Shown here: positions 18,080 to 30,444 of the stretch, piece by piece | Layout of the letters: each line of letters starts with the position of its first letter | How positions within the stretch are numbered: the stretch's first letter is position 1 | Assembly: GCF_000025925.1 (NCBI RefSeq) | Contig: NC_014033.1 | Location: 660,001-692,000 of the forward strand | DNA length: 32,000 nt | Source: Xylanibacter ruminicola 23 | Lineage (GTDB): Bacteria; Bacteroidota; Bacteroidia; Bacteroidales; Bacteroidaceae | Direction of reading: 5' to 3' | Notes under the pieces: generated by a model | What the model saw: only the letters and a program-made list of their open reading frames with translations | What the model was told of the DNA's origin: nothing | The model's database searches: none | Program-made: the position numbers and the translations under genes

Positions 18080-18511
18080 TTAATCGTTCCAGTTCAGTTT
18101 CTCTACATAAGCATCAAACTTTAGCTCTTCGTGGCCGATGGCTTTAAGGGCATCTTCAATTTGCTTGATATCGCTGGGTGAACAGAGTTGGGCACCCTTG
18201 CGACGTTCGAAGTAAGGATTACGACCAAACTTGCCCTGCAGTCGATACATAAACGTCTGGTACTCATCGGGTAGCATCTTCTTCTGCATGTTCTTAAAGC
18301 CTTTTCCATAAACCTGAGGCTTATCATCGCGATAGTATTCGCAACCTTCGCCAGTTTGGGTTAGCTGTGGATTCAGAATTGTTACTGCTGTCAGGTTGCT
18401 AGGCAAGTTCTGCATAGCCAACTGGCGCAAACAGTGGTCAGCCATCTTGCAATCTGCCTTGATGCAATGCAGATAGCAGCCAGGAACTTCATCGTAATTA
18501 ATCTTGCTCAT
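18080..18511 (-). CDS. Cys-rich hypothetical protein of Bacteroidales mobile elements
   Basis: The start is moved to the ATG giving MSKINYDEVPGCYLHCIKADCKMADHC (a cluster of 4 Cys). The track's GTG start at 18544 lies inside a repeat motif. The protein is adjacent to the VirE-like gene. Confidence 0.6.
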   Translation of the reverse strand: MSKINYDEVPGCYLHCIKADCKMADHCLRQLAMQNLPSNLTAVTILNPQLTQTGEGCEYYRDDKPQVYGKGFKNMQKKMLPDEYQTFMYRLQGKFGRNPYFERRKGAQLCSPSDIKQIEDALKAIGHEELKFDAYVEKLNWND

Positions 18512-18533
18512 AAATAGTTTTGTTATTTTTGTT

Positions 18534-18635
18534 AAACCTCTCACTCAAATACACTGAAAGTCGCATCTGTAAAGGAGTTGAGGCTTATGAGAGGTTTGTG
18601 TAACCTCTCACTATACCTCTCACTCAACCTCTCAC
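18534..18635. repeat. Left array of the GTGAGAGGTT motif (5 copies, including one hairpin pair)
   Basis: AACCTCTCAC at 18534, 18602 and 18626. ACCTCTCAC at 18615. The opposite-orientation TGAGAGGTT at 18588 forms a 9-bp stem with the 18602 copy. Confidence 0.85.
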
Positions 18636-18646
18636 TTTTTTCATCG

Positions 18647-19858
18647 TCATGCTGCATCAACAGGCACCACATTGTAGTATTTTACATGTCCGCGCTCAGT
18701 ATGCTCAAAGCCCAGATCTTTCATCGCCAATCCCAGATGCACCTTGGTGCTAACGGTCTTTTTAAGCGAAGGATACTCCTTGCTAATCAACTCCAGCATC
18801 TGCGTGCAGTTCATTGCTTTTACCTTCTCGCCTTCGTTAGGTTTGCGGAAACATGCCTCAATAATCTCTGTAATGTCCTTTTCGTCGGTATAGTTCTGGT
18901 TCAGCTCCTGAATACGTGCCACCTGCTCGTTGGTAAACCAGTAAGGTGCCTTCAACTCGTTCACCTCATACACCAACTGAGCATATAGCTGCTCGTAATC
19001 AATCTCACCAGCATTGTCGATATACTGCCCATCAGGAATCTCAATACAGATGAATCGACGACTACCTGTTACATCCGACAAGGGATGGGGATTGTTGGTA
19101 GTGGCCACGAACGATGCATAACGAGGGCGATCCTGCTGCGAACTGCCATAAATAGTACGTCCGTTAACCTTGATTTTCGAGAGCGTCTGCTTCAAGGCCG
19201 CCTGCTGACTGGGGCGGATGGCATCCAACTCGTCTAGGTTCACCAGCAGGTTGTTAGTCAAGGCCATCTCCTTATCGAACTTGTTTGATAGGTTCAGATG
19301 GTCGAGATAATACTCCTGTAGTTCAGGAGGCAGCAAGCGCGCTATGAAGGTTGATTTGCCACAGCCCTGTGAACCAATCAACGTGGGCACACTCTCGTTG
19401 GCGTGCAGCTTATCCTTCTGCAACCAATGCGCCACAGCCGAGCGGAACCAGATAATCAGGAAGTCCAACTGCTCGCTGCTAATGCCAGGCAAGCGGCTGA
19501 ACAACTTGGCCAGATGATTCTGCCCGTCCCATTTGGGCAGTTGCGATAGAAACTCGCTGATAGGATTGTACACGGGCGTTGCATCCGAGTAGATTACCTC
19601 CTGGATATCAGTCTTAGGACTGTTTTTGGTAATCTGCTCCTGCTTAGCCTTGCGAACGATGCTGTTCAGGGCTTCAGGTGTTAGCGTTCGCCAAACAGAC
19701 TGATTATCAGTCTGTTTGGTAGTCAAGATTAGATACTCTACCTTACCGTTGAGAATGTTTCGACGGAACAGGTAATTGTCAGTAAGGAACTGCTCAACCG
19801 CGAGCGAGTTCTGCAGAGAGGCTCCTAGAGACTCTCCGTTAATTGTCATTTTATTCAT
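18647..19858 (-). CDS. VirE/VapE-family P-loop NTPase (primase/helicase-associated protein of mobile elements)
   Basis: 403 aa with Walker A GSQGCGKST and Walker B LLVNLDELD. The overall resemblance is to Bacteroidales virulence-associated-E / DUF3874-type proteins. Confidence 0.75.
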   Translation of the reverse strand: MNKMTINGESLGASLQNSLAVEQFLTDNYLFRRNILNGKVEYLILTTKQTDNQSVWRTLTPEALNSIVRKAKQEQITKNSPKTDIQEVIYSDATPVYNPISEFLSQLPKWDGQNHLAKLFSRLPGISSEQLDFLIIWFRSAVAHWLQKDKLHANESVPTLIGSQGCGKSTFIARLLPPELQEYYLDHLNLSNKFDKEMALTNNLLVNLDELDAIRPSQQAALKQTLSKIKVNGRTIYGSSQQDRPRYASFVATTNNPHPLSDVTGSRRFICIEIPDGQYIDNAGEIDYEQLYAQLVYEVNELKAPYWFTNEQVARIQELNQNYTDEKDITEIIEACFRKPNEGEKVKAMNCTQMLELISKEYPSLKKTVSTKVHLGLAMKDLGFEHTERGHVKYYNVVPVDAA

Positions 19859-20230: not shown

Positions 20231-20251
20231 CAAGCGAAATACATATTTGAT

Positions 20252-20545
20252 ATGGGAAAGGATGAATGTATCAAACTGCTGAAGAAGTATATGACTATAC
20301 TTAAAGAAAAGTATGGTATAACTTCTTTGTCTCTGTTTGGTTCTACTGCACGTGGAGAGCAAACGGAGCAGAGTGATATAGATCTGTTTGTAGATACGCA
20401 AACACCAAATCCTTTCTTGCTGCAGGATGCTAAAGAGTTCTTGGAAAAAGAAACAGGAACCTCCGTTGATATTATCCGCAATCATCAAAACCTTAACCCA
20501 CGATTAAAAAAACGTATCTTAAAAGATGGAATCTTTATCTTCTGA
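20252..20545 (+). CDS. Nucleotidyltransferase-domain antitoxin (MNT / MntA-like)
   Basis: The GSTARGEQTEQSDIDLFV motif (GSxxRG...DxD). The start is moved to the ATG at 20252, downstream of the promoter box. Confidence 0.85.
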   Translation: MGKDECIKLLKKYMTILKEKYGITSLSLFGSTARGEQTEQSDIDLFVDTQTPNPFLLQDAKEFLEKETGTSVDIIRNHQNLNPRLKKRILKDGIFIF

Positions 20546-20915
20546 AAGCAAGGGAATAGCATTAGATATTCTTGAAGACATTCTTTCGGCTATCGAGAGG
20601 CTTGAAGATCGTACAAAGGATGTGCAAACTATAGATGATTTTCTATGTTCGTCTTCTGGTATGGTATTGCTTGATGCTACATGTATGCTGCTGATAGCAA
20701 TAGGCGAGAGTCTTAAGAATCTTGATAAGACTACAGACGGTAAACTTCTTCCTACATATCCTTCTATTCCTTGGAAAAACGTGAAAGGTATGAGGGATAT
20801 TATTGCTCATCATTATTTCGATGTTGATGCATCCCAAATCCTATGGATAATCAAGAATGAGATTGCTCCATTAAAGACCGCTATCCAGTTCTTTATTGAT
20901 GAGTTGAAGAAATAA
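20526..20915 (+). CDS. HEPN-domain toxin (DUF86 / HepT-like)
   Basis: The GMRDIIAHHY motif (Rx4H), a 20-nt overlap with the MNT gene, and 129 aa. Confidence 0.85.
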   Translation: MESLSSESKGIALDILEDILSAIERLEDRTKDVQTIDDFLCSSSGMVLLDATCMLLIAIGESLKNLDKTTDGKLLPTYPSIPWKNVKGMRDIIAHHYFDVDASQILWIIKNEIAPLKTAIQFFIDELKK

Positions 20916-21143
20916 CTTTGGAACCAAATTCCTTCCGCCGAAATGGTAGAGTAGCACCGTAATCGGTTTAGCAAATCATTTCTGCGTTTTTTTTGAGACG
21001 TTTATCCTGTATCATTATCGCAAAGCTGTCACTTTATTTTTGGATGAGGCTAGATAATCAACTTTAAAACTCTTTTTTATTAAAAACAATATATATTCGA
21101 AAATAGCGTTATTTTACAAAATATAAAACAAGTAAAAATGTAA

Positions 21144-22784
21144 CTAAACTTCTTTAGATAGTAATTCTTTGGTCAGAATTTCATCAATTCGGTCTAAGTC
21201 CCAATATGGAATTTCAATAAGTCGAATGTCGTTGTCTTTGCTGTATTTACGTAGATAACGGTCGCGATGTTGTTGAACGGTGAAGTTACGGATACGACCT
21301 TTATAATAAAAGTCAATGTCTTCATAATGCTGCTCACCGTGAAATTCTATTATAATATTATGGCCATTGTAGCTTGGCAACCAAAAGTCGGCAGAGAGAT
21401 ACTGCAATGGCAGCGTGGGGTCGTTATTGGGGATAGGCTGTTCTTGGATGAATTCGATAATGTCGTGTTTCTGCAACCAACGACGTACCTCTGCTTCGCC
21501 CATAGACTCTTTAAACTCTGCAGCACAAAGGGGGCATGAACCATTGACGGTTCGTAAATTGTTGTCAGGAGTAGTTTGAAACCAATGGTCATGTATGCAG
21601 CATCGAATCCAAATTAGGCTGTCATTGTTCACATAATCCTCATGGGCACGACAATAATCATAGCGATTTTTTCCGTACTTTGCTTCGCATTGGGCAATCC
21701 ACTCATCGCATCGTTGTAATGGCGGTTTTTTGTTGGGATAGTTGGCGCACTTGGGACATCCACATCCTTGACTTACATGGACGTCATAGCGCTGTTTCTG
21801 TAGTCCATGCTCCTTACAGATATAGTGTATGTAGTCTGCCTTCGTTCTTGGCGGGACACCTACGTATTGGAATTTGTCGCCATGAACTGCTTGCGCATTC
21901 TTTATCCAGTCGGCAGGCCAGAATTTTCCATTGCAGTAGTCGCAACCCTTACCATCGAGCCACCATTTTGCATCATGTATTATCTTACCGTGCTTGGCAC
22001 AAGTGACGCTTATCTTAGTATGCACAGAAACTTTACGCTTACGTTCAAAGGAGAAATCATTATTTCGATATATGATGTTTACACGTCGATAGAATTCTTT
22101 GGCGGTTAGTTTTGGATTATCCTTGGGGGCGGGTATTCCACAGCATTTCCAGCAACCGTGAGGAGGTCGTTTATAGTCTCCTTTGCTTATACCAACAAGG
22201 AGTATTCTTGGTTTTATCTCAAAAATGCCATGGTCTCGACAAATCAAAGTCACATTTTTATCGTTGCCTTGATAGTCGACGAGTGAGGTATCTAACTGGT
22301 CTCCATACATGTTATGTACGCGCTCTATAAAGCGGGCTTCCTCAAAGCTCTTACCATGCCAATGTTGTAGGTAGGCTTCTTTTTCTCGTTTTTTAGCTTC
22401 TTTTGCAGCTTTTTCTGCGGCAATTTGCATTGGAGTCTTTGCTTTCCTAGATGATATGGCTTGTATTCTCCCTACACGACTATTCTTTTCACATAACTTG
22501 AGATATTTATTCCAATCTTTGCCGTAGTCTGTTTTGTGAGTTATCTCAGCCCTACATATAGGACAGCCTGTTGGCGTAAATGTACCATGTGGCTTCATTA
22601 TATGGTTTTGCGCCATAGCTACACGAAAATGATAGTCATGTTTGGGACAATATATGATTATCGGTTTTTTTCCGCCATCATATACACTCTCTGAATAGTC
22701 ATATCGGTTCCCCCATATCTCATGAGCCTGCTCAATATAACGAGCTAGAGACTTTGTGTTGTCTGGAATATTGCTATTTTTCAT
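21144..22784 (-). CDS. Protein with five tandem zinc-ribbon modules and a C-terminal Vsr-like / PD-(D/E)xK endonuclease domain (homing-endonuclease-like)
   Basis: Five repeats of the pattern (Y/H)G..(Y/F)DY...x...C..HG.x(10-25).GC..C. The C-terminus (EAEVRRWLQKHDI...ADFWLP...IIIEFHGEQHY...RLIEIPYWD) matches the phage/bacterial nuclease family with the IEYDGxQH core. Confidence 0.7.
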   Translation of the reverse strand: MKNSNIPDNTKSLARYIEQAHEIWGNRYDYSESVYDGGKKPIIIYCPKHDYHFRVAMAQNHIMKPHGTFTPTGCPICRAEITHKTDYGKDWNKYLKLCEKNSRVGRIQAISSRKAKTPMQIAAEKAAKEAKKREKEAYLQHWHGKSFEEARFIERVHNMYGDQLDTSLVDYQGNDKNVTLICRDHGIFEIKPRILLVGISKGDYKRPPHGCWKCCGIPAPKDNPKLTAKEFYRRVNIIYRNNDFSFERKRKVSVHTKISVTCAKHGKIIHDAKWWLDGKGCDYCNGKFWPADWIKNAQAVHGDKFQYVGVPPRTKADYIHYICKEHGLQKQRYDVHVSQGCGCPKCANYPNKKPPLQRCDEWIAQCEAKYGKNRYDYCRAHEDYVNNDSLIWIRCCIHDHWFQTTPDNNLRTVNGSCPLCAAEFKESMGEAEVRRWLQKHDIIEFIQEQPIPNNDPTLPLQYLSADFWLPSYNGHNIIIEFHGEQHYEDIDFYYKGRIRNFTVQQHRDRYLRKYSKDNDIRLIEIPYWDLDRIDEILTKELLSKEV

Positions 22785-22895
22785 ATCGACCTAGTCAGTG
22801 ATCATTATTTATTCATATAGCATCATCAAATAATTATCAGAATAATCCCTTGTTATTTCTCTAAACTTTAATTAGGCATAACCCAGTATTTTCTG

Positions 22896-22903
22896 CAAAT
22901 ATA
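22896..22903 (-). promoter_or_regulatory. -7 box (TATATTTG) for the 546-aa nuclease-like gene
   Basis: Reverse complement of caaatata, about 110 nt upstream of the ATG at 22784. Confidence 0.45.
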
Positions 22904-22975
22904 CGAATAATAATCGAATCTGCAAAATCTGCTGATATTTTTGGATAGATATTTGTAAATTTCAAAACAATTTTG

Positions 22976-22983
22976 TACTTTTG
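22976..22983 (+). promoter_or_regulatory. -7 box (TACTTTTG) with an upstream TTTG at 22952-22955; divergent promoter for the 139-aa gene
   Basis: TAnnTTTG plus a -33-like TTTG with a 20-nt spacer. It leaves a ~110-nt leader before the ATG at 23100. Confidence 0.5.
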
Positions 22984-23099
22984 CGCCCAGAATAAGCATC
23001 AAGAGTGGCATAATGCACACCAACCGGCCTACACAGAATCGTTGGCAGCGGTGGTAAAAGGATGCGAGTGAATGTTTAATCCACTAAAGATAAACGATT

Positions 23100-23519
23100 A
23101 TGGAAATCAAGAAGATTGAAAAGAGTGACTTTGTAATGTATCCACGTATGCAACATCGTGGGTTGGAGTTCAGGCATGTAGAACGTGATGCGTTTAAGGC
23201 AGAGTTGCGCCATGTTGAGGAACATGGTGACTATTGGCTGATTCATCAGCAGTCGAAGCCTCATGTTGTGGCCCACGTCCAATTACCCAAGACGGAAGCA
23301 GAGTTTGATAATATCCTTGGCTGGTGTTTGGGACAAAACCATTGGTGCGAGTACATTGAGGGGGATTTCTCTTTCCTCTGTGTTATAGCAGGCTTCAATG
23401 CTGCAGAACTCACTCCTAAATACCCAGACTTTATCAGCGAACGTGTTTATGCTCTTGGTGATGCTACTCGCTGGTGGTATGAGTATGGAAAGGATGTTCT
23501 GATACAAAAGACAACATAA
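23100..23519 (+). CDS. Hypothetical protein (139 aa)
   Basis: ORF with an ATG start behind its own promoter. No family is recognised. Confidence 0.55.
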   Translation: MEIKKIEKSDFVMYPRMQHRGLEFRHVERDAFKAELRHVEEHGDYWLIHQQSKPHVVAHVQLPKTEAEFDNILGWCLGQNHWCEYIEGDFSFLCVIAGFNAAELTPKYPDFISERVYALGDATRWWYEYGKDVLIQKTT

Positions 23520-23566
23520 GGATATCAGATTATTCTTTGAAAATGGCTATGATAAGATTTTTTTCG

Positions 23567-23574
23567 TATATTTG
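23567..23574 (+). promoter_or_regulatory. -7 box (TATATTTG) for the DUF4041/T5orf172 gene
   Basis: TAnnTTTG match 25 nt upstream of the ATG at 23600. Confidence 0.45.
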
Positions 23575-23599
23575 CAGCATCATTTAAAAGATTCTGATT

Positions 23600-25288
23600 A
23601 TGGCAATATTTGATTTTCTAAAATCCCACGAAGAAAAAGTAAACGAGAGAAAAGCAGAAATAGCAGCTTTGCAGCAACAAGTTGTTTCTTTACGTGACGA
23701 GGTGGCTTCTGAGGAGAAAGAAAAAGAAGAGTTAAGAAGTCAGATTGTTGAATTGAAGAATCTTGTTGTGGCTCAAAAGAATGAACTATATGATTTGCAA
23801 CAGGACAAAGAAAAAACAAAGAAGCAAGTTGATAGCCTTCATGAAAGATATGAAAAGTTGCATGCTTTGTTAACGAGATCAACCAGAAAATTAAATTGTA
23901 TGGAATCTTCTGATGAATTCTTGTTATTTGACGTTGGATCTCCATATTTGGTTGCGTTGGATGAAGTAGATTATGAAGAATTGTGTAAATATCACAATCT
24001 TAGAGAAGAAAATCATTCTTATTATGATAAGAAGAAGCAAAGAGAGGATGAATTACATGCCATAGAGCTGAAAATTGAAGATGCAAACAAAGAACTAACC
24101 AATCTTCGAGAGGAATTGGTAAAACAGCGTGATATTAATTATGCCTATGAAATAAACAATATTAAAGAACAAACTAGTGAATATATTCATGAATTGAATG
24201 ACATAAAAGCAGATATTAATAGTTATCTGAAAAATCATAAAGACAAGATTCGCTTAGAGGTAATACATGAAATATACCAAAGAGCAAATCTTTGTGAAGA
24301 TGAGGCTTTGAGAAATTTGCGAGAAACTATTGACGGTGTTAATATTGACCAGATACAACTTGCTTTGGATTTAAAGAAAATGTTGTTGAAACCTCCATAT
24401 AAAGTTAATCCACAGGAATGGACTTTTGCTGAAATATATTTGTGTAATTTGTTAAATGAATTTGCACAACTCAATATTGTTAAAATCATAAAAGAAATGA
24501 AAAACTCAGATTGGGATACGATTAAAGTCAAAATAGGTTCTCTTGTTAATATTTTAGAATTGCGTATGATTGGAACGGGATTTCGAATAGATCCATCATA
24601 TGGAAAGAATCTATTCAATTATATGGAAGCAAAGTATTTATATATACAAAAGCAACAGATTGAACGAGAAAAGGAGCGAGAAGAACGTGAGGCACAACGT
24701 GAATATGAGCGTGCTATAAAAAAGGCTCTAAAAGATGAAGAAAAGGCACAAGAGGCTCTTGAAAAGAAGAAAAGAGAAATGGCAGAAGCGCAGACTCAGG
24801 AAAAGATACAGAAATTGCAGGAACAGATAAAGGGACTGGAGAATGCTCTTGTTGAAGCTCGTGAACTAAGAGAGAGAGCAATGAGTATGGCACAACAAAC
24901 TAAGATAGGCTATGTTTATGTTATCTCTAATATAGGTTCTTTTGGAAAAGATGTCTATAAGATTGGAATGACTCGTCGATTAGACCCGATGGAGCGTATT
25001 ATGGAATTAAGTAACGCTAGCGTTCCATTCCCATTTGACGTACACACCTTTATATATAGTGAGGATGCACCAGCATTGGAGGCAGACTTACATAGAAGAT
25101 TCGATGCCAAGAAGGTTAACTCTATAAACTATCGCAAAGAATATTTCAATGTGACGTTAGATGAAATAAAAGCGGCATTGAAAGAGAAAGGAGTTGATGC
25201 AAACTTTGTAGACGAACCTGATGCATTCCAATACAGAGAAAGCCTTATGAAAAATCGCGATGGTATTCTCTCTACAATACAGCAGTGA
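23600..25288 (+). CDS. Coiled-coil DUF4041-type protein with a C-terminal T5orf172 / MUG113 (GIY-YIG-superfamily) domain
   Basis: The N-terminal and central regions are long E/K-rich heptad coiled coil. The C-terminus (GYVYVISNIGSFGKDVYKIGMTRRLDPMERIMELSNASVPFPFDVH...YFNVTLDEI) is the T5orf172 signature. Confidence 0.8.
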   Translation: MAIFDFLKSHEEKVNERKAEIAALQQQVVSLRDEVASEEKEKEELRSQIVELKNLVVAQKNELYDLQQDKEKTKKQVDSLHERYEKLHALLTRSTRKLNCMESSDEFLLFDVGSPYLVALDEVDYEELCKYHNLREENHSYYDKKKQREDELHAIELKIEDANKELTNLREELVKQRDINYAYEINNIKEQTSEYIHELNDIKADINSYLKNHKDKIRLEVIHEIYQRANLCEDEALRNLRETIDGVNIDQIQLALDLKKMLLKPPYKVNPQEWTFAEIYLCNLLNEFAQLNIVKIIKEMKNSDWDTIKVKIGSLVNILELRMIGTGFRIDPSYGKNLFNYMEAKYLYIQKQQIEREKEREEREAQREYERAIKKALKDEEKAQEALEKKKREMAEAQTQEKIQKLQEQIKGLENALVEARELRERAMSMAQQTKIGYVYVISNIGSFGKDVYKIGMTRRLDPMERIMELSNASVPFPFDVHTFIYSEDAPALEADLHRRFDAKKVNSINYRKEYFNVTLDEIKAALKEKGVDANFVDEPDAFQYRESLMKNRDGILSTIQQ

Positions 25289-25470
25289 AAAGTATAGATA
25301 TTAGTAGATGGCTATAGTTGGGTGAAGTTGATAGGGGATTTTCTTTGGACCTGGTGGCGGAAAGATTGTAATTATCGATAACGTCGTATATGGGAGTGCT
25401 GTAAATAAAGAATTGCTTGAAGCCAAATGGTTGACTGGTAGATACATTGAGAATTTCCCACAAGTTGTGG

Positions 25471-29993: not shown

Positions 29994-30095
29994 TTATGTA
30001 AAATATGTTGCTGGTTTCTTTAAAATAAGTTAATTAATAATCATATTTTAGGGGAATTTTTTGCAGGTGTCGAAAATAGTCGTATCTTTGCACCG

Positions 30096-30161
30096 TGTGT
30101 TTTTCATAGTATTAGATTTAAGGTTAACAAAGGTTAGGGTCACAGCGGTGACCCTTTTTTT
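30096..30161 (+). ncRNA. Candidate ~65-nt small RNA (orphan promoter plus intrinsic terminator, no ORF)
   Basis: -33 TTTG (30060-30063), a 19-nt spacer, then -7 TATCTTTG (30083-30090). There is no ATG before the hairpin gggtcac agcg gtgaccc (30137-30154) and its T7 run. The 5' end is estimated, not observed. Confidence 0.3.
30137..30161 (+). terminator. Intrinsic terminator (7-bp GC-rich stem plus T7)
   Basis: gggtcac / gtgaccc stem, loop agcg, then ttttttt. It could also terminate the MBL hydrolase transcript. Confidence 0.7.
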
Positions 30162-30444
30162 ATATCCATCTTCTGCGTTTGCCCTTATCTTTGCCAAACA
30201 GCGAGCTGTAGCCTTTCATGAGTTTGCGTACCAGTAGAATAGCATCTACAGCCATAAAACCATTGCTTACCAGGCTGGCAATATAGTCGCCCTTCGACAC
30301 CTCGTCGCGCTTCAGGAATGTCTGGTTCCAAAGCGACGAAACCTTGTCCTTATCTTTCTGGATCTCGTCAAGCAAAGCATCCTTGCGCTCGCGAATCTCT
30401 TCGAGCGTGCAAAAATCGGTGGTTGTTTTCTTGTTGTACGGCAT
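30160..30444 (-). CDS. Hypothetical protein (94 aa); third gene of the YtxH trio
   Basis: ORF 5 nt downstream of the holin-like gene. No family is recognised. Confidence 0.55.
   Translation of the reverse strand: MPYNKKTTTDFCTLEEIRERKDALLDEIQKDKDKVSSLWNQTFLKRDEVSKGDYIASLVSNGFMAVDAILLVRKLMKGYSSLFGKDKGKRRRWI

Follow-up and report, generated by a model that had tools for sequence, protein, structure and literature searches.

The open reading frame at positions 21144-22784 on the minus strand of the window (the whole 32,000-nt stretch of DNA analysed here) encodes five C-x2-H...C-x2-C modules followed by a C-terminal domain that is predicted to be a Vsr-fold nuclease. On balance, and with somewhat better than even confidence, the product is read here as a homing-endonuclease-type DNA endonuclease of phage ancestry that has been maintained and that most likely acts in trans on foreign DNA, in exclusion or defence. 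The gene is a fresh member of a very common and already known architecture. The gene and the features of its product, with the evidence for each, are as follows:

21144..22784, minus strand: nuclease gene, complete ORF of 546 aa plus stop with an ATG start (ORF list, translation)
22896..22926, minus strand: candidate Bacteroidetes-type promoter motif, TTTG-N19-TAtaTTTG (consensus match only)
22539..22751, minus strand: zinc module 1, aa 12-82; putative ligands C46, H49, C74, C77 (module HMM, conservation, BLASTP)
22347..22538, minus strand: 64-aa insert between modules 1 and 2, aa 83-146 (AF2, HMM, dN/dS)
22128..22346, minus strand: zinc module 2, aa 147-219; putative ligands C182, H185, C211, C214 (module HMM, conservation, BLASTP)
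21921..22106, minus strand: zinc module 3, aa 227-288; putative ligands C262, H265, C281, C284 (module HMM, conservation)
21732..21920, minus strand: zinc module 4, aa 289-351; putative ligands C323, H326, C343, C346 (module HMM, conservation)
21513..21722, minus strand: zinc module 5, aa 355-424; putative ligands C395, H398, C417, C420 (module HMM, conservation)
21147..21512, minus strand: predicted Vsr-fold PD-(D/E)xK nuclease domain, aa 425-546 (AF2, Foldseek, profile alignment to 3r3p, invariance)

The encoded protein is identical in sequence to PRMUPPPA20_10910, a hypothetical protein of Xylanibacter (Prevotella) ruminicola. The promoter motif, of the -33/-7 type, sits 112-142 nt 5' of the ATG and would give a leader of about 100 nt; the window holds eight matches to this Bacteroidetes-type motif versus 0.38 expected by chance. 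No intron RNA was detected anywhere in the window. The original prediction of a free-standing gene with its own promoter, a leader of ~110 nt and no intron context agrees with these results. Searched at full length, the protein had zero matches in NCBIfam and sub-threshold matches only in Pfam (DUF723 at 12.9 bits against a cutoff of 20.9), and a ribosomal protein match in a PDB sequence search was set aside as chance.

The five cysteine- and histidine-bearing motifs described earlier are all present, with ligand pairs mapped for each module, as are the aromatic segments said to precede them: a helix and an aromatic segment stand ahead of every module (WGNRYDY, YGDQLDT, YRNNDFSF, HGDKFQY and YGKNRYDY). 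Pairwise BLASTP between modules (modules 1 and 2, 7e-8; modules 1 and 5, 1.5e-6; modules 2 and 4, 5e-4; module 3 weak) marks the five as evidently diverged copies of one unit, and the duplications would be old, since there is no module-length DNA-level repeat within the gene. A module HMM matches the protein exactly five times (i-E 1e-22 to 1e-25), a count that is partly circular because the family's copies of these modules went into building the HMM. The same HMM also picks out modules in unrelated proteins, ones that exceed the thresholds Pfam itself sets for DUF723, DUF4379 or CapR, and distant relatives linked through it do so as well. All 20 putative zinc ligands are retained in at least 98 of 108 homologues (41-82% identity), a degree of retention far beyond chance.

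Close relatives that exceed the Pfam thresholds include P0060 (DUF4379 28.2, DUF723 22.9) and P0082 (CapR 33.9), and PF05265 is listed for all 120 homologues in a precomputed table. On the strength of such matches, the modules are assigned to the CapR/DUF723/DUF4379 class of treble-clef zinc fingers. They had been labelled zinc ribbons, a term that finds no support here: the Pfam entry of the matching family, DUF4379, describes a probable treble clef, and modules 1 and 5 are treble-clef-like in the AF2 model, each with a hairpin C-x2-H knuckle and a C-x2-C that opens a helix (in module 1, a helix at 13-24, a hairpin at 42-55 and the C-x2-C opening a helix at 75-83). Modules 2-4 are modelled without such a helix at the C-x2-C. 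The insert at aa 83-146 has the length of one module, and a degenerate sixth module was therefore considered there and rejected, as the module HMM had no match in it even with filters off. AF2 models this insert as a small hairpin and then, at aa 118-142, a long helix rich in Lys and Glu; it is kept in the Prevotella/phage clade, is missing from relatives whose modules are evenly spaced at ~63-70 aa, and contains the gene's only DNA tandem repeat (21 nt x 1.9).

At the C-terminus, the motifs DFWLP, IIIEFHGEQHY and LIEIPYWD are all found at aa 466-528. A Foldseek search of the full-length model against the PDB, with Mediator and polo-box proteins as top matches, was uninformative because the model is multi-domain (pTM 0.40); the nuclease domain was therefore modelled alone, from an alignment built without phage sequences, with pLDDT 92.9 and pTM 0.86. 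Foldseek matches to this domain model, with E-values of 3e-3 to 0.17 across them, included I-Bth0305I (3r3p_B; probability 0.99, TM 0.57/0.69, TMt 0.69), Vsr (1vsr; 0.87), the endonuclease-like protein 3hrl (0.90) and two Toxoplasma mitoribosome proteins (1.0). Presumably, 3hrl is of DUF559 type, and we take the Toxoplasma matches to be RAP-domain proteins. The best-fitting small-domain matches (TM at least 0.5) were Vsr-like without exception. Against the PDB, a close-family nuclease profile (A2) gave chance matches only, and a broader profile (A4) gave 3r3p as its best match, a weak one (E=0.11). The profile alignment to I-Bth0305I places D466 on D196(A), H482 on N208 and D508 on D222. In Pfam the nuclease domain of the window protein had no match at E<=0.1; PHROG matches were 'HNH endonuclease' (5e-64), 'endonuclease' (1e-35) and 'homing endonuclease' (PHROG 9084, aa 425-531; 2.5e-17). 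Given the weak Foldseek and profile E-values, the call of a Vsr-like fold, made on a high-confidence model with weak fold matches, rests on the agreement of several weak lines and on the congruence of the catalytic residues.

The EDxHD motif of I-Bth0305I consists of E170, D196, N208, H213 and D222, and its x position corresponds to H64 in Vsr (PMC3239194). Equivalent residues here are E430, D466, H482 (at x), H486 and D508. All 108 homologues keep E430, D466, E480, H486, D508 and E524, and the first five are invariant across phyla as well. The x position is occupied by N in 66, H in 41 and Q in one member of the close family (n=108) and by D, N, Q or H in the wider family. Thus, the histidine of IEFHG, flagged earlier as a possible active-site variation, falls on the variable x of the motif, where I-Bth0305I has N208 and Vsr has H64, and is no anomaly of the active site. 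The spacing from x to H is 4 (IEFHGEQH) versus 5 in I-Bth0305I (IEVNGVYWH) and Vsr, and resembles the DUF559-type 'E.DG..H' pattern in the 3hrl alignment. There is no cysteine in aa 425-546, and Vsr's own zinc site is therefore absent. With the Foldseek matches to 3r3p, 1vsr and 3hrl and the catalytic residues intact on alignment, the earlier proposal of a Vsr-like C-terminal nuclease in a homing-endonuclease-like layout is upheld.

The same cannot be said of the suggestion that the protein is unusually expanded, since five modules are common among its relatives. An exhaustive search returned 23,009 related cluster representatives, and proteins with the same nuclease domain carry from 0 to 14 modules. 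The commonest count is 5-7 in the genome-contig and exhaustive-search samples, and phage relatives have 3-7. At 80 bacterial and archaeal genome loci, five modules were counted in 21 proteins, six in 16, seven in 5 and eight in 1; on viral contigs, three were counted in 23, four in 32, five in 21 and seven in 1; among the top matches of the exhaustive search, five were counted in 26, six in 29, seven in 24 and 8-14 in 27 more. Five is a typical count and not an unusual expansion. Five-repeat homologues therefore turn out to be common, the outcome named beforehand as counting against the expanded reading, and as a class they are annotated and partly described. Members had also been thought to carry one or two such modules, a view that finds no support: in I-Bth0305I, the N-terminal pair consists of NUMOD/HTH motifs instead of zinc modules (PMC3239194).

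Phage-like contigs of 45-137 kb, roughly 100 kb, that encode a tape-measure protein carry the nearest relatives of the gene, at 40-75% identity and in a syntenic position. On these contigs the gene is no less conserved than the tape-measure gene (40-75% versus 32-42% identity; one 153-aa fragment stands at 57%), in a sample that was chosen by presence of the gene and in which gene-less phages are invisible. In one Staphylococcus phage and one Bacillus phage, a relative lies within terL, which is split. The 'Hef-like homing endonuclease' of a Klebsiella phage combines three of these zinc modules with an IEFNGLYWH nuclease, a domain that the narrow nuclease HMM did not detect in this protein. 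Pseudaeromonas phage KLEP7 gp11 has six modules and a T5orf172-like C-terminus (recognised by eye).

The gene sits in a strain-variable hotspot of defence genes, with PD-Lambda-1 and MNT/HepT in the window and AbiE at the same site in Prevotella sp. khp1. The variable segment and its other elements are:

20244..25379, no strand assigned: low-GC strain-variable cassette, 5.1 kb (comparison with Prevotella sp. khp1)
20252-20545, plus strand: MNT, cassette gene
20526-20915, plus strand: HepT, cassette gene
22991-23101, plus strand: SAM-I/IV riboswitch, cassette element
23100-23519, plus strand: 139-aa ORF after the SAM riboswitch, cassette gene
23600-25288, plus strand: PD-Lambda-1 (match 3.9e-90)

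Strain khp1 has no nuclease gene; a 0.9-kb AbiEii/DUF6922 segment replaces the cassette between flanks that are 97.5% identical, such that the difference is a five-gene cassette swap and not a clean insertion. A mobile island comprising VapE/DUF6078 and the nuclease was considered and rejected: VapE/DUF6078 are at the same chromosomal place in khp1, and only 20244-25379 varies. In the strains compared, the cargo beside the nuclease gene varies and the nuclease gene is constant. PADLOC gave a sole match for the nuclease protein, a marginal one (E=0.003, 15 bits) of its nuclease domain to PDC-S69, and the T5orf172 domain belongs to the neighbouring PD-Lambda-1 gene. No methyltransferase gene was found in or beside the cassette.

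Estimates from one sequence pair (dS 0.75) give the nuclease gene a dN/dS of 0.125, similar in that pair to its neighbours VapE (0.114) and DUF6078 (0.136). Within the protein, again for the one pair, dN/dS is at or below 0.2 for each module and for the nuclease domain (0.13), and the highest value, 0.20, is that of the insert at aa 83-146. These ratios point to purifying selection and to a maintained nuclease gene instead of a decaying selfish remnant.

By homology, each ~65-aa module would hold a single zinc ion with a C-H-C-C set of ligands, and the five together would form a flexible, beads-on-a-string array reading an extended and probably degenerate DNA site. The array would deliver the C-terminal nuclease, which is expected to cut beside the bound site. 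As in Vsr and I-Bth0305I, the Mg2+ ligands would be D466 and E480 and the general base H486, with support from E430, H482 and D508; a monomer could nick its target, or a dimer could make a double-strand break in the manner of I-Bth0305I. Zinc binding, DNA binding, cleavage and the target are in this sense predictions from sequence; what the analysis shows is the anatomy, the fold, the retention of ligands and catalytic residues, the size of the family, the phage setting of the nearest relatives, the cassette around the gene and the purifying selection. The least certain step is the role: the enzyme would act on foreign DNA on its entry, from phages or otherwise, that is related to the homologue-carrying phages. 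Exclusion or defence fits the location of the gene in a defence-gene hotspot, and to that extent the suggested role is guilt by association. In a more specific form, put forward tentatively, a captured phage homing-type nuclease under purifying selection would either be a stand-alone anti-phage or exclusion nuclease with a long modular site in Prevotella phages that carry homologues, or drive a homing-like exchange of defence cassettes between strains.

Classical self-propagating homing is the main alternative to a defence or exclusion role, and we regard it as possible and rather unlikely. A purely selfish, free-standing homing endonuclease gene (HEG) would cut the gene-less allele of the hotspot locus and spread by repair-mediated gene conversion, and might co-convert flanking defence genes. 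The architecture and relatives of the phage HEG type, intron-borne ones included, and the presence/absence polymorphism at one chromosomal site of near-identical genomes are in keeping with such a gene, and its constancy amid strain-variable cargo recalls 'nuclease genes at boundaries of genetic exchange' (PMC10448857). However, the polymorphism is that of a 5.1-kb five-gene cassette exchanged for a different one of 0.9 kb. Further, both chromosomal copies have diverged in step with the genes beside them (dS 0.75), with strong purifying selection on all parts, which counts against a selfish gene because a fixed HEG with rare homing opportunities is expected to decay, and the phage-contig copies are syntenic and conserved no less than the tape-measure gene.

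Two other explanations are considerably weaker. A domesticated DNA-binding regulator whose nuclease no longer cuts has a precedent in CapR of PLE, the same module class domesticated as a repressor (PMC8096241, PMC10448857), but it is very improbable here: CapR has no nuclease domain, whereas E430, D466, E480, H486 and D508 are invariant in all 108 homologues and across phyla, and the dN/dS of the nuclease domain is 0.13. More improbable still is a housekeeping enzyme of the Vsr or restriction type, acting in mismatch repair linked with a cytosine methyltransferase or as a classical restriction endonuclease. The Vsr-like fold would suit it, and viral relatives bear automatic names such as 'Restriction enzyme'. 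Against it stand the lack of a methyltransferase in or beside the cassette, a nuclease domain without cysteine and hence without the Vsr zinc site, the absence of the gene from a 97.5%-identical strain and the phage-borne nature of its nearest relatives.

Among known systems, the Hef-like or EDxHD homing endonucleases (I-Bth0305I, 3R3P; phage U5 Hef) share with the window protein a C-terminal Vsr-fold E...D...x...H...D nuclease and N-terminal modular DNA-binding units. In phages such genes are free-standing, like the 'Hef-like' ones of T4-like and other phages, or intron-borne, and the window copy is free-standing; Hef-like endonucleases are phage-borne, whereas the window copy is chromosomal. 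I-Bth0305I has two NUMOD/HTH motifs where the window protein has five zinc modules (PMC3239194), its x-to-H spacing is 5 and not 4, and sequence similarity to 3r3p is marginal (E=0.11). The same class of zinc module occurs in tandem in GIY-YIG-like T5orf172 HEGs of phages, which carry repeated CapR/DUF723/DUF4379 zinc-finger arrays, DNA-binding arrays having been shuffled onto nuclease domains (PMC10448857); six repeat units are labelled in the HEG of phage Helene (Barth et al. 2023, PMC10448857). The nuclease of those HEGs is T5orf172/MUG113, in contrast to the Vsr-fold PD-(D/E)xK domain predicted here, and the Pfam scan gave no T5orf172 match. CapR of the Vibrio cholerae PLE is a homologous module that passed from phage HEGs to a chromosomal element of phage conflict; experiments have established that its zinc finger binds DNA sequence-specifically, and Cys-to-Ser mutants lose this binding (Netter et al. 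2021, PMC8096241). CapR has one module with C-x2-C...C-x-C ligands and is a repressor without a nuclease, whereas the window protein has five C-x2-H...C-x2-C modules and an intact nuclease. With E. coli Vsr (1VSR) the window protein has in common the core fold, the catalytic Asp/His constellation and a His at x (H64); Vsr consists of one domain, which holds a zinc site of its own, and is specific for T:G mismatches and linked to dcm, features that the window protein lacks. Among related nuclease domains, Pfam matches are most often to DUF2726 (14 of 36, best 5e-7), with DUF559 in 3 of 36, and the 3hrl sequence has the E-x-[D/H/N/Q]-G-x-x-H spacing of the window protein. To the best of our knowledge, the DUF2726 and DUF559 families are themselves uncharacterised.

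The architecture itself carries little weight, given tens of thousands of proteins that combine zinc modules with a nuclease and the routine occurrence of arrays of 5-10. We know of no target site, DNA-bound structure or recognition code for a multi-module array on a Vsr-fold nuclease, and a modular reader built from zinc fingers in this way might appeal to genome engineers. A chromosomal copy in a swap-prone hotspot, together with maintained phage relatives, makes a convenient case in which to ask whether homing endonucleases, once captured, work as nucleases of defence or exclusion.

The 139-aa ORF upstream of the nuclease gene showed no homology to the neighbours of the gene on phage contigs, which gives no sign that the two travel together in phages. 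Controlled by the SAM riboswitch next door, this ORF is a separate lead.

The gene under study encodes a protein with an identical database entry, annotated as hypothetical and encoded on 3.6-Mb contigs of Xylanibacter (Prevotella) ruminicola.

21144..22784, minus strand: nuclease gene, 546 aa, ATG start (ORF listing)

Its translation contains five C-x2-H...C-x2-C pairs, at 46/74, 182/211, 262/281, 323/343, and 395/417, and every module is preceded by a helix with an aromatic (W/Y/H)G..(Y/F)(D/Q)(Y/T/F) segment. All 20 putative zinc ligands are conserved in at least 98 of 108 aligned homologs (41-82% identity), a pattern that goes far beyond chance. Both the five-fold array and the aromatic segments of the original prediction are thus borne out. 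The modules are 22-32% identical among themselves; three of the pairs give BLASTP E-values of 7e-8, 1.5e-6, and 5e-4, whereas similarity for module 3 is weak, and no module-length repeat was found in the gene at the DNA level. They are ancient copies that have diverged.

In an AlphaFold2 model of the full-length protein on the 108-homolog alignment (mean pLDDT 86.7, pTM 0.40), the single domains are confident and their mutual arrangement is undefined, which suggests a beads-on-a-string organization. The modeled modules consist of a helix, a beta-hairpin with C-x2-H in its turn, and then C-x2-C, which in modules 1 and 5 lies at a helix start. Against Pfam DUF723 the window protein scored 12.9 bits, under the threshold of 20.9 bits, and close family members and distant relatives exceed the Pfam thresholds for DUF723, DUF4379, and the CapR homology domain. 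DUF4379 is described in Pfam as a "probable treble clef zinc finger", and sequence-specific DNA binding by the CapR domain has been proven by experiment, with Cys-to-Ser mutants failing to bind (PMC8096241). In phage T5orf172 homing endonucleases, DNA is usually bound by these three related zinc-finger domains, often in repeated form, one phage having six labelled repeat units (Barth et al. 2023, PMC10448857). Given the relatives' Pfam matches and these published domains, the label "zinc ribbon" should be replaced by "treble-clef-type CapR/DUF723/DUF4379 module". A conserved insert of 64 aa, one module long and present in this clade only, lies between modules 1 and 2 (22347-22538, minus strand; aa 83-146). 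AlphaFold2 gives it a long helix rich in Lys and Glu as well as a small hairpin, and it evolves fastest within the protein (dN/dS 0.20). The module HMM detected no module in it; the insert could be a spacer or a sixth module that has degenerated.

The nuclease domain modeled alone (aa 424-546) gave a pLDDT of 92.9 and a pTM of 0.86, and its best-fitting PDB matches in Foldseek (TM >= 0.5) are Vsr-like throughout. Matches, with modest E-values of 3e-3 to 0.17, were obtained to I-Bth0305I (3r3p; probability 0.99, TM 0.57/0.69), to E. coli Vsr (0.87), to the endonuclease-like protein 3hrl (0.90), which we take to be of the DUF559 type, and to two Toxoplasma mitoribosome proteins (1.0), which presumably contain RAP domains, themselves Vsr-like. 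Among PDB sequences, 3r3p was the top match (E=0.11) to a profile built from 36 diverse nuclease domains. The composite catalytic motif EDxHD, in which x is variable, comprises E170, D196, x=N208 (Vsr H64), H213, and D222 according to the I-Bth0305I paper, and the alignment to 3r3p pairs D466 with the D196A position, H482 with N208, and D508 with D222. E430, D466, H486, and D508, as well as E480 and E524, are unchanged in 108 of 108 homologs, which together with the Foldseek matches upholds the proposed Vsr-like nuclease. At x, 66 homologs have N, 41 have H, and 1 has Q, and the wider family has D, N, Q, or H; the "IEFHG" that had been read as a possible active-site variation is therefore not an altered active site, its H being the ordinary variable x. 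What does differ is the spacing from x to H, which is 4 here and in the DUF559-type "E.DG..H" pattern of the 3hrl alignment but 5 in Vsr, I-Bth0305I, and a Klebsiella-phage "Hef-like" enzyme (IEFNGLYWH). This spacing is of the DUF2726/DUF559 type, and DUF2726 is the commonest Pfam match among related nuclease domains (14 of 36). The defining features of the Vsr-fold EDxHD group that are testable by analysis, fold and motif, were both found, and the protein would resemble Hef-like/EDxHD enzymes in its working; its array is of the kind carried by T5orf172 homing endonuclease genes with zinc-finger arrays, but is joined to a Vsr-fold nuclease.

When 1.84 billion cluster representatives were searched exhaustively with phmmer, 23,009 proteins passed E<=1e-3, and 10,042 of them passed E<=1e-10.

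Module number in proteins bearing the window protein's nuclease domain, counted by module HMM (modules: proteins)
80 bacterial and archaeal genome loci, many phyla: 0:6, 1:8, 2:8, 3:6, 4:9, 5:21, 6:16, 7:5, 8:1
84 ORFs of IMG/VR viral contigs: 3:23, 4:32, 5:21, 7:1; further seven at 0-2
124 of the exhaustive search's best new representatives: 5:26, 6:29, 7:24, 8:10, 9:6, 10:8, 11:2, 14:1; further 18 at 0-4

Even though all three samples are biased to long arrays, being ranked by likeness to a five-module query, five is an ordinary count (21 of 80 genome loci, 21 of 84 viral ORFs, and 26 of 124 representatives), and the array is not unusually expanded as had been thought. Nor does a norm of one or two such modules hold, since the "two modules" of I-Bth0305I are, per the I-Bth0305I paper, NUMOD/HTH motifs, other than the zinc modules. 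The claimed surprise, a five-fold expansion with an odd active site, is thus gone on inspection. Among related proteins, P0363 (1046 aa) has 14 modules with the nuclease domain mid-protein, P0372 (893 aa) has 11 modules and the nuclease domain, and P0419 (1014 aa) has 15 modules without a window-type nuclease domain. An archaeal Methanobacteriaceae MAG (L008, L073) encodes the window protein's architecture in two copies on one contig. BFVD holds 256 viral proteins of similar structure at E<=1e-3, under names that include "Homing endonuclease", "CapR homology domain-containing", and "Treble clef zinc finger domain-containing"; giant-virus proteins are among them, with multi-module examples in Klosneuvirus, Mimivirus, Marseillevirus, and Orpheovirus, giant viruses of eukaryotes.

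Matches to the window protein were found by tblastn in 742 phage records. The protein of Staphylococcus phage VL10 (L001; four modules and nuclease) and that of Bacillus phage LY2 (L002; two modules in the annotated ORF, three in a longer reading frame) are both encoded between fragments of a large-terminase gene that the annotation lists as several distinct "terminase large subunit" CDSs. This is where an intron endonuclease sits, and the breaks in the terminase probably correspond to group I introns that lack annotation. Of two further phage proteins, one from a Vibrio phage has four modules and IEFHGKQH, and one from a Pseudaeromonas phage has six modules joined to a C-terminus recognized by eye as T5orf172-like. 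The five-module clade nearest the window protein (40-75% identity among members) is of phage origin: it is encoded on contigs of 45-137 kb that also carry numerous small unknown ORFs and a tape-measure gene, and its gene is syntenic, a few kb downstream of the latter and adjoining a divergent HTH gene. Conservation of the clade's nuclease equals or exceeds that of the tape-measure protein (mostly 32-42% identical).

The window gene itself lies in a strain-variable cassette. GC content is 33-40% between 20 and 25.4 kb of the window versus about 45-50% elsewhere, and Prevotella sp. khp1 matches the window at 97.5% identity on both flanks, as far as 20243 and from 25380 onward. In the interval khp1 carries 0.9 kb with AbiEii and DUF6922 (L181 7733-8628), whereas the window carries 5.1 kb of low GC (20244-25379). 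The slot is flanked by VapE-like and DUF6078 genes on one side and by a phosphoribosyltransferase gene and pheS on the other.

18647-19858 and 18080-18544, minus strand: VapE-like and DUF6078 gene pair
Within 20244-25379: MNT and HepT, a toxin-antitoxin pair
22991-23101, plus strand: SAM-I/IV riboswitch RF01725, well formed (54.5 bits versus a threshold of 41.1)
23100-23519, plus strand: 139-aa ORF of unknown family, at whose start codon the riboswitch ends
23600-25288, plus strand: PD-Lambda-1 single-gene defense protein, 562 aa (PADLOC 3.9e-90; PHROG 1847 3e-91)

In the PD-Lambda-1 protein the N-terminus is a coiled coil and the C-terminus is of the T5orf172/MUG113 type. The 139-aa ORF had no match in Pfam, PHROG, or PADLOC, and its family of 135-150-aa proteins is abundant in ENA-deposited metagenome assemblies (284 clusters, 70-93% identical, some with >1,800 members); it would be a SAM-controlled gene in a defense-gene cassette. 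The VapE-like protein (primase/helicase-type) has >7,000 homologs at E<=1e-50, the best 120 all 96-100% identical. The VapE-like/DUF6078 pair is extremely widespread and nearly invariant in rumen Prevotella and is fixed at the same chromosomal site in khp1.

At the closest relative's locus, in a more distant strain (L099), the nuclease is 82% identical and adjoins the same VapE/DUF6078 genes, MNT is lost, and HepT is reduced to a 3' remnant of 37 codons. Because an extra 411-aa ORF (L099 241-1594), unmatched in Pfam and PADLOC, is inserted there downstream of the promoter motif and ahead of the nuclease start codon (window equivalent 22877/22862), it is probably in an operon with the nuclease. 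Comparison of the two chromosomal copies, a single pair, shows purifying selection on the nuclease (dN/dS 0.125, dS 0.75) and on its neighbors VapE (0.114, dS 0.65) and DUF6078 (0.136, dS 1.12), and dN/dS is <=0.2 for every module and the nuclease domain.

The window protein is most likely a homing-endonuclease-type DNA nuclease. By homology, which is the basis for zinc and DNA binding, the chemistry of cleavage, and the oligomeric state, the flexible five-module zinc array would read a long, probably degenerate DNA site and would tether the Vsr-fold nuclease, resulting in a cut near the bound site; I-Bth0305I works as a dimer on a pseudopalindromic site, according to the I-Bth0305I paper. The biological role of the window protein is the weak step. 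A maintained conflict function, namely exclusion of or defense against related phages, is favored because the gene has co-diverged with its neighbors under purifying selection, is syntenic in the phage group, and sits among defense genes in a swap-prone slot, and the same three points speak against a selfish element in decay. A serious rival to such a conflict function is classical homing, which might carry the cassette with it. A CapR-like regulator or a Vsr/restriction housekeeping enzyme is unlikely, since the catalytic residues are invariant, a methyltransferase is absent, and presence varies by strain.

As originally predicted, the window gene has a putative promoter of its own, a Bacteroidetes -33/-7 motif matching the consensus 112-142 nt upstream of the ATG, and lacks an intron context, an Rfam search of the window having returned no intron. 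Eight such promoter motifs occur in the window versus 0.38 expected by chance. One at 30060-30090 lies just upstream of a small RNA.

30097-30164, plus strand: FopS small RNA of Bacteroidetes, RF04319 (79 bits)
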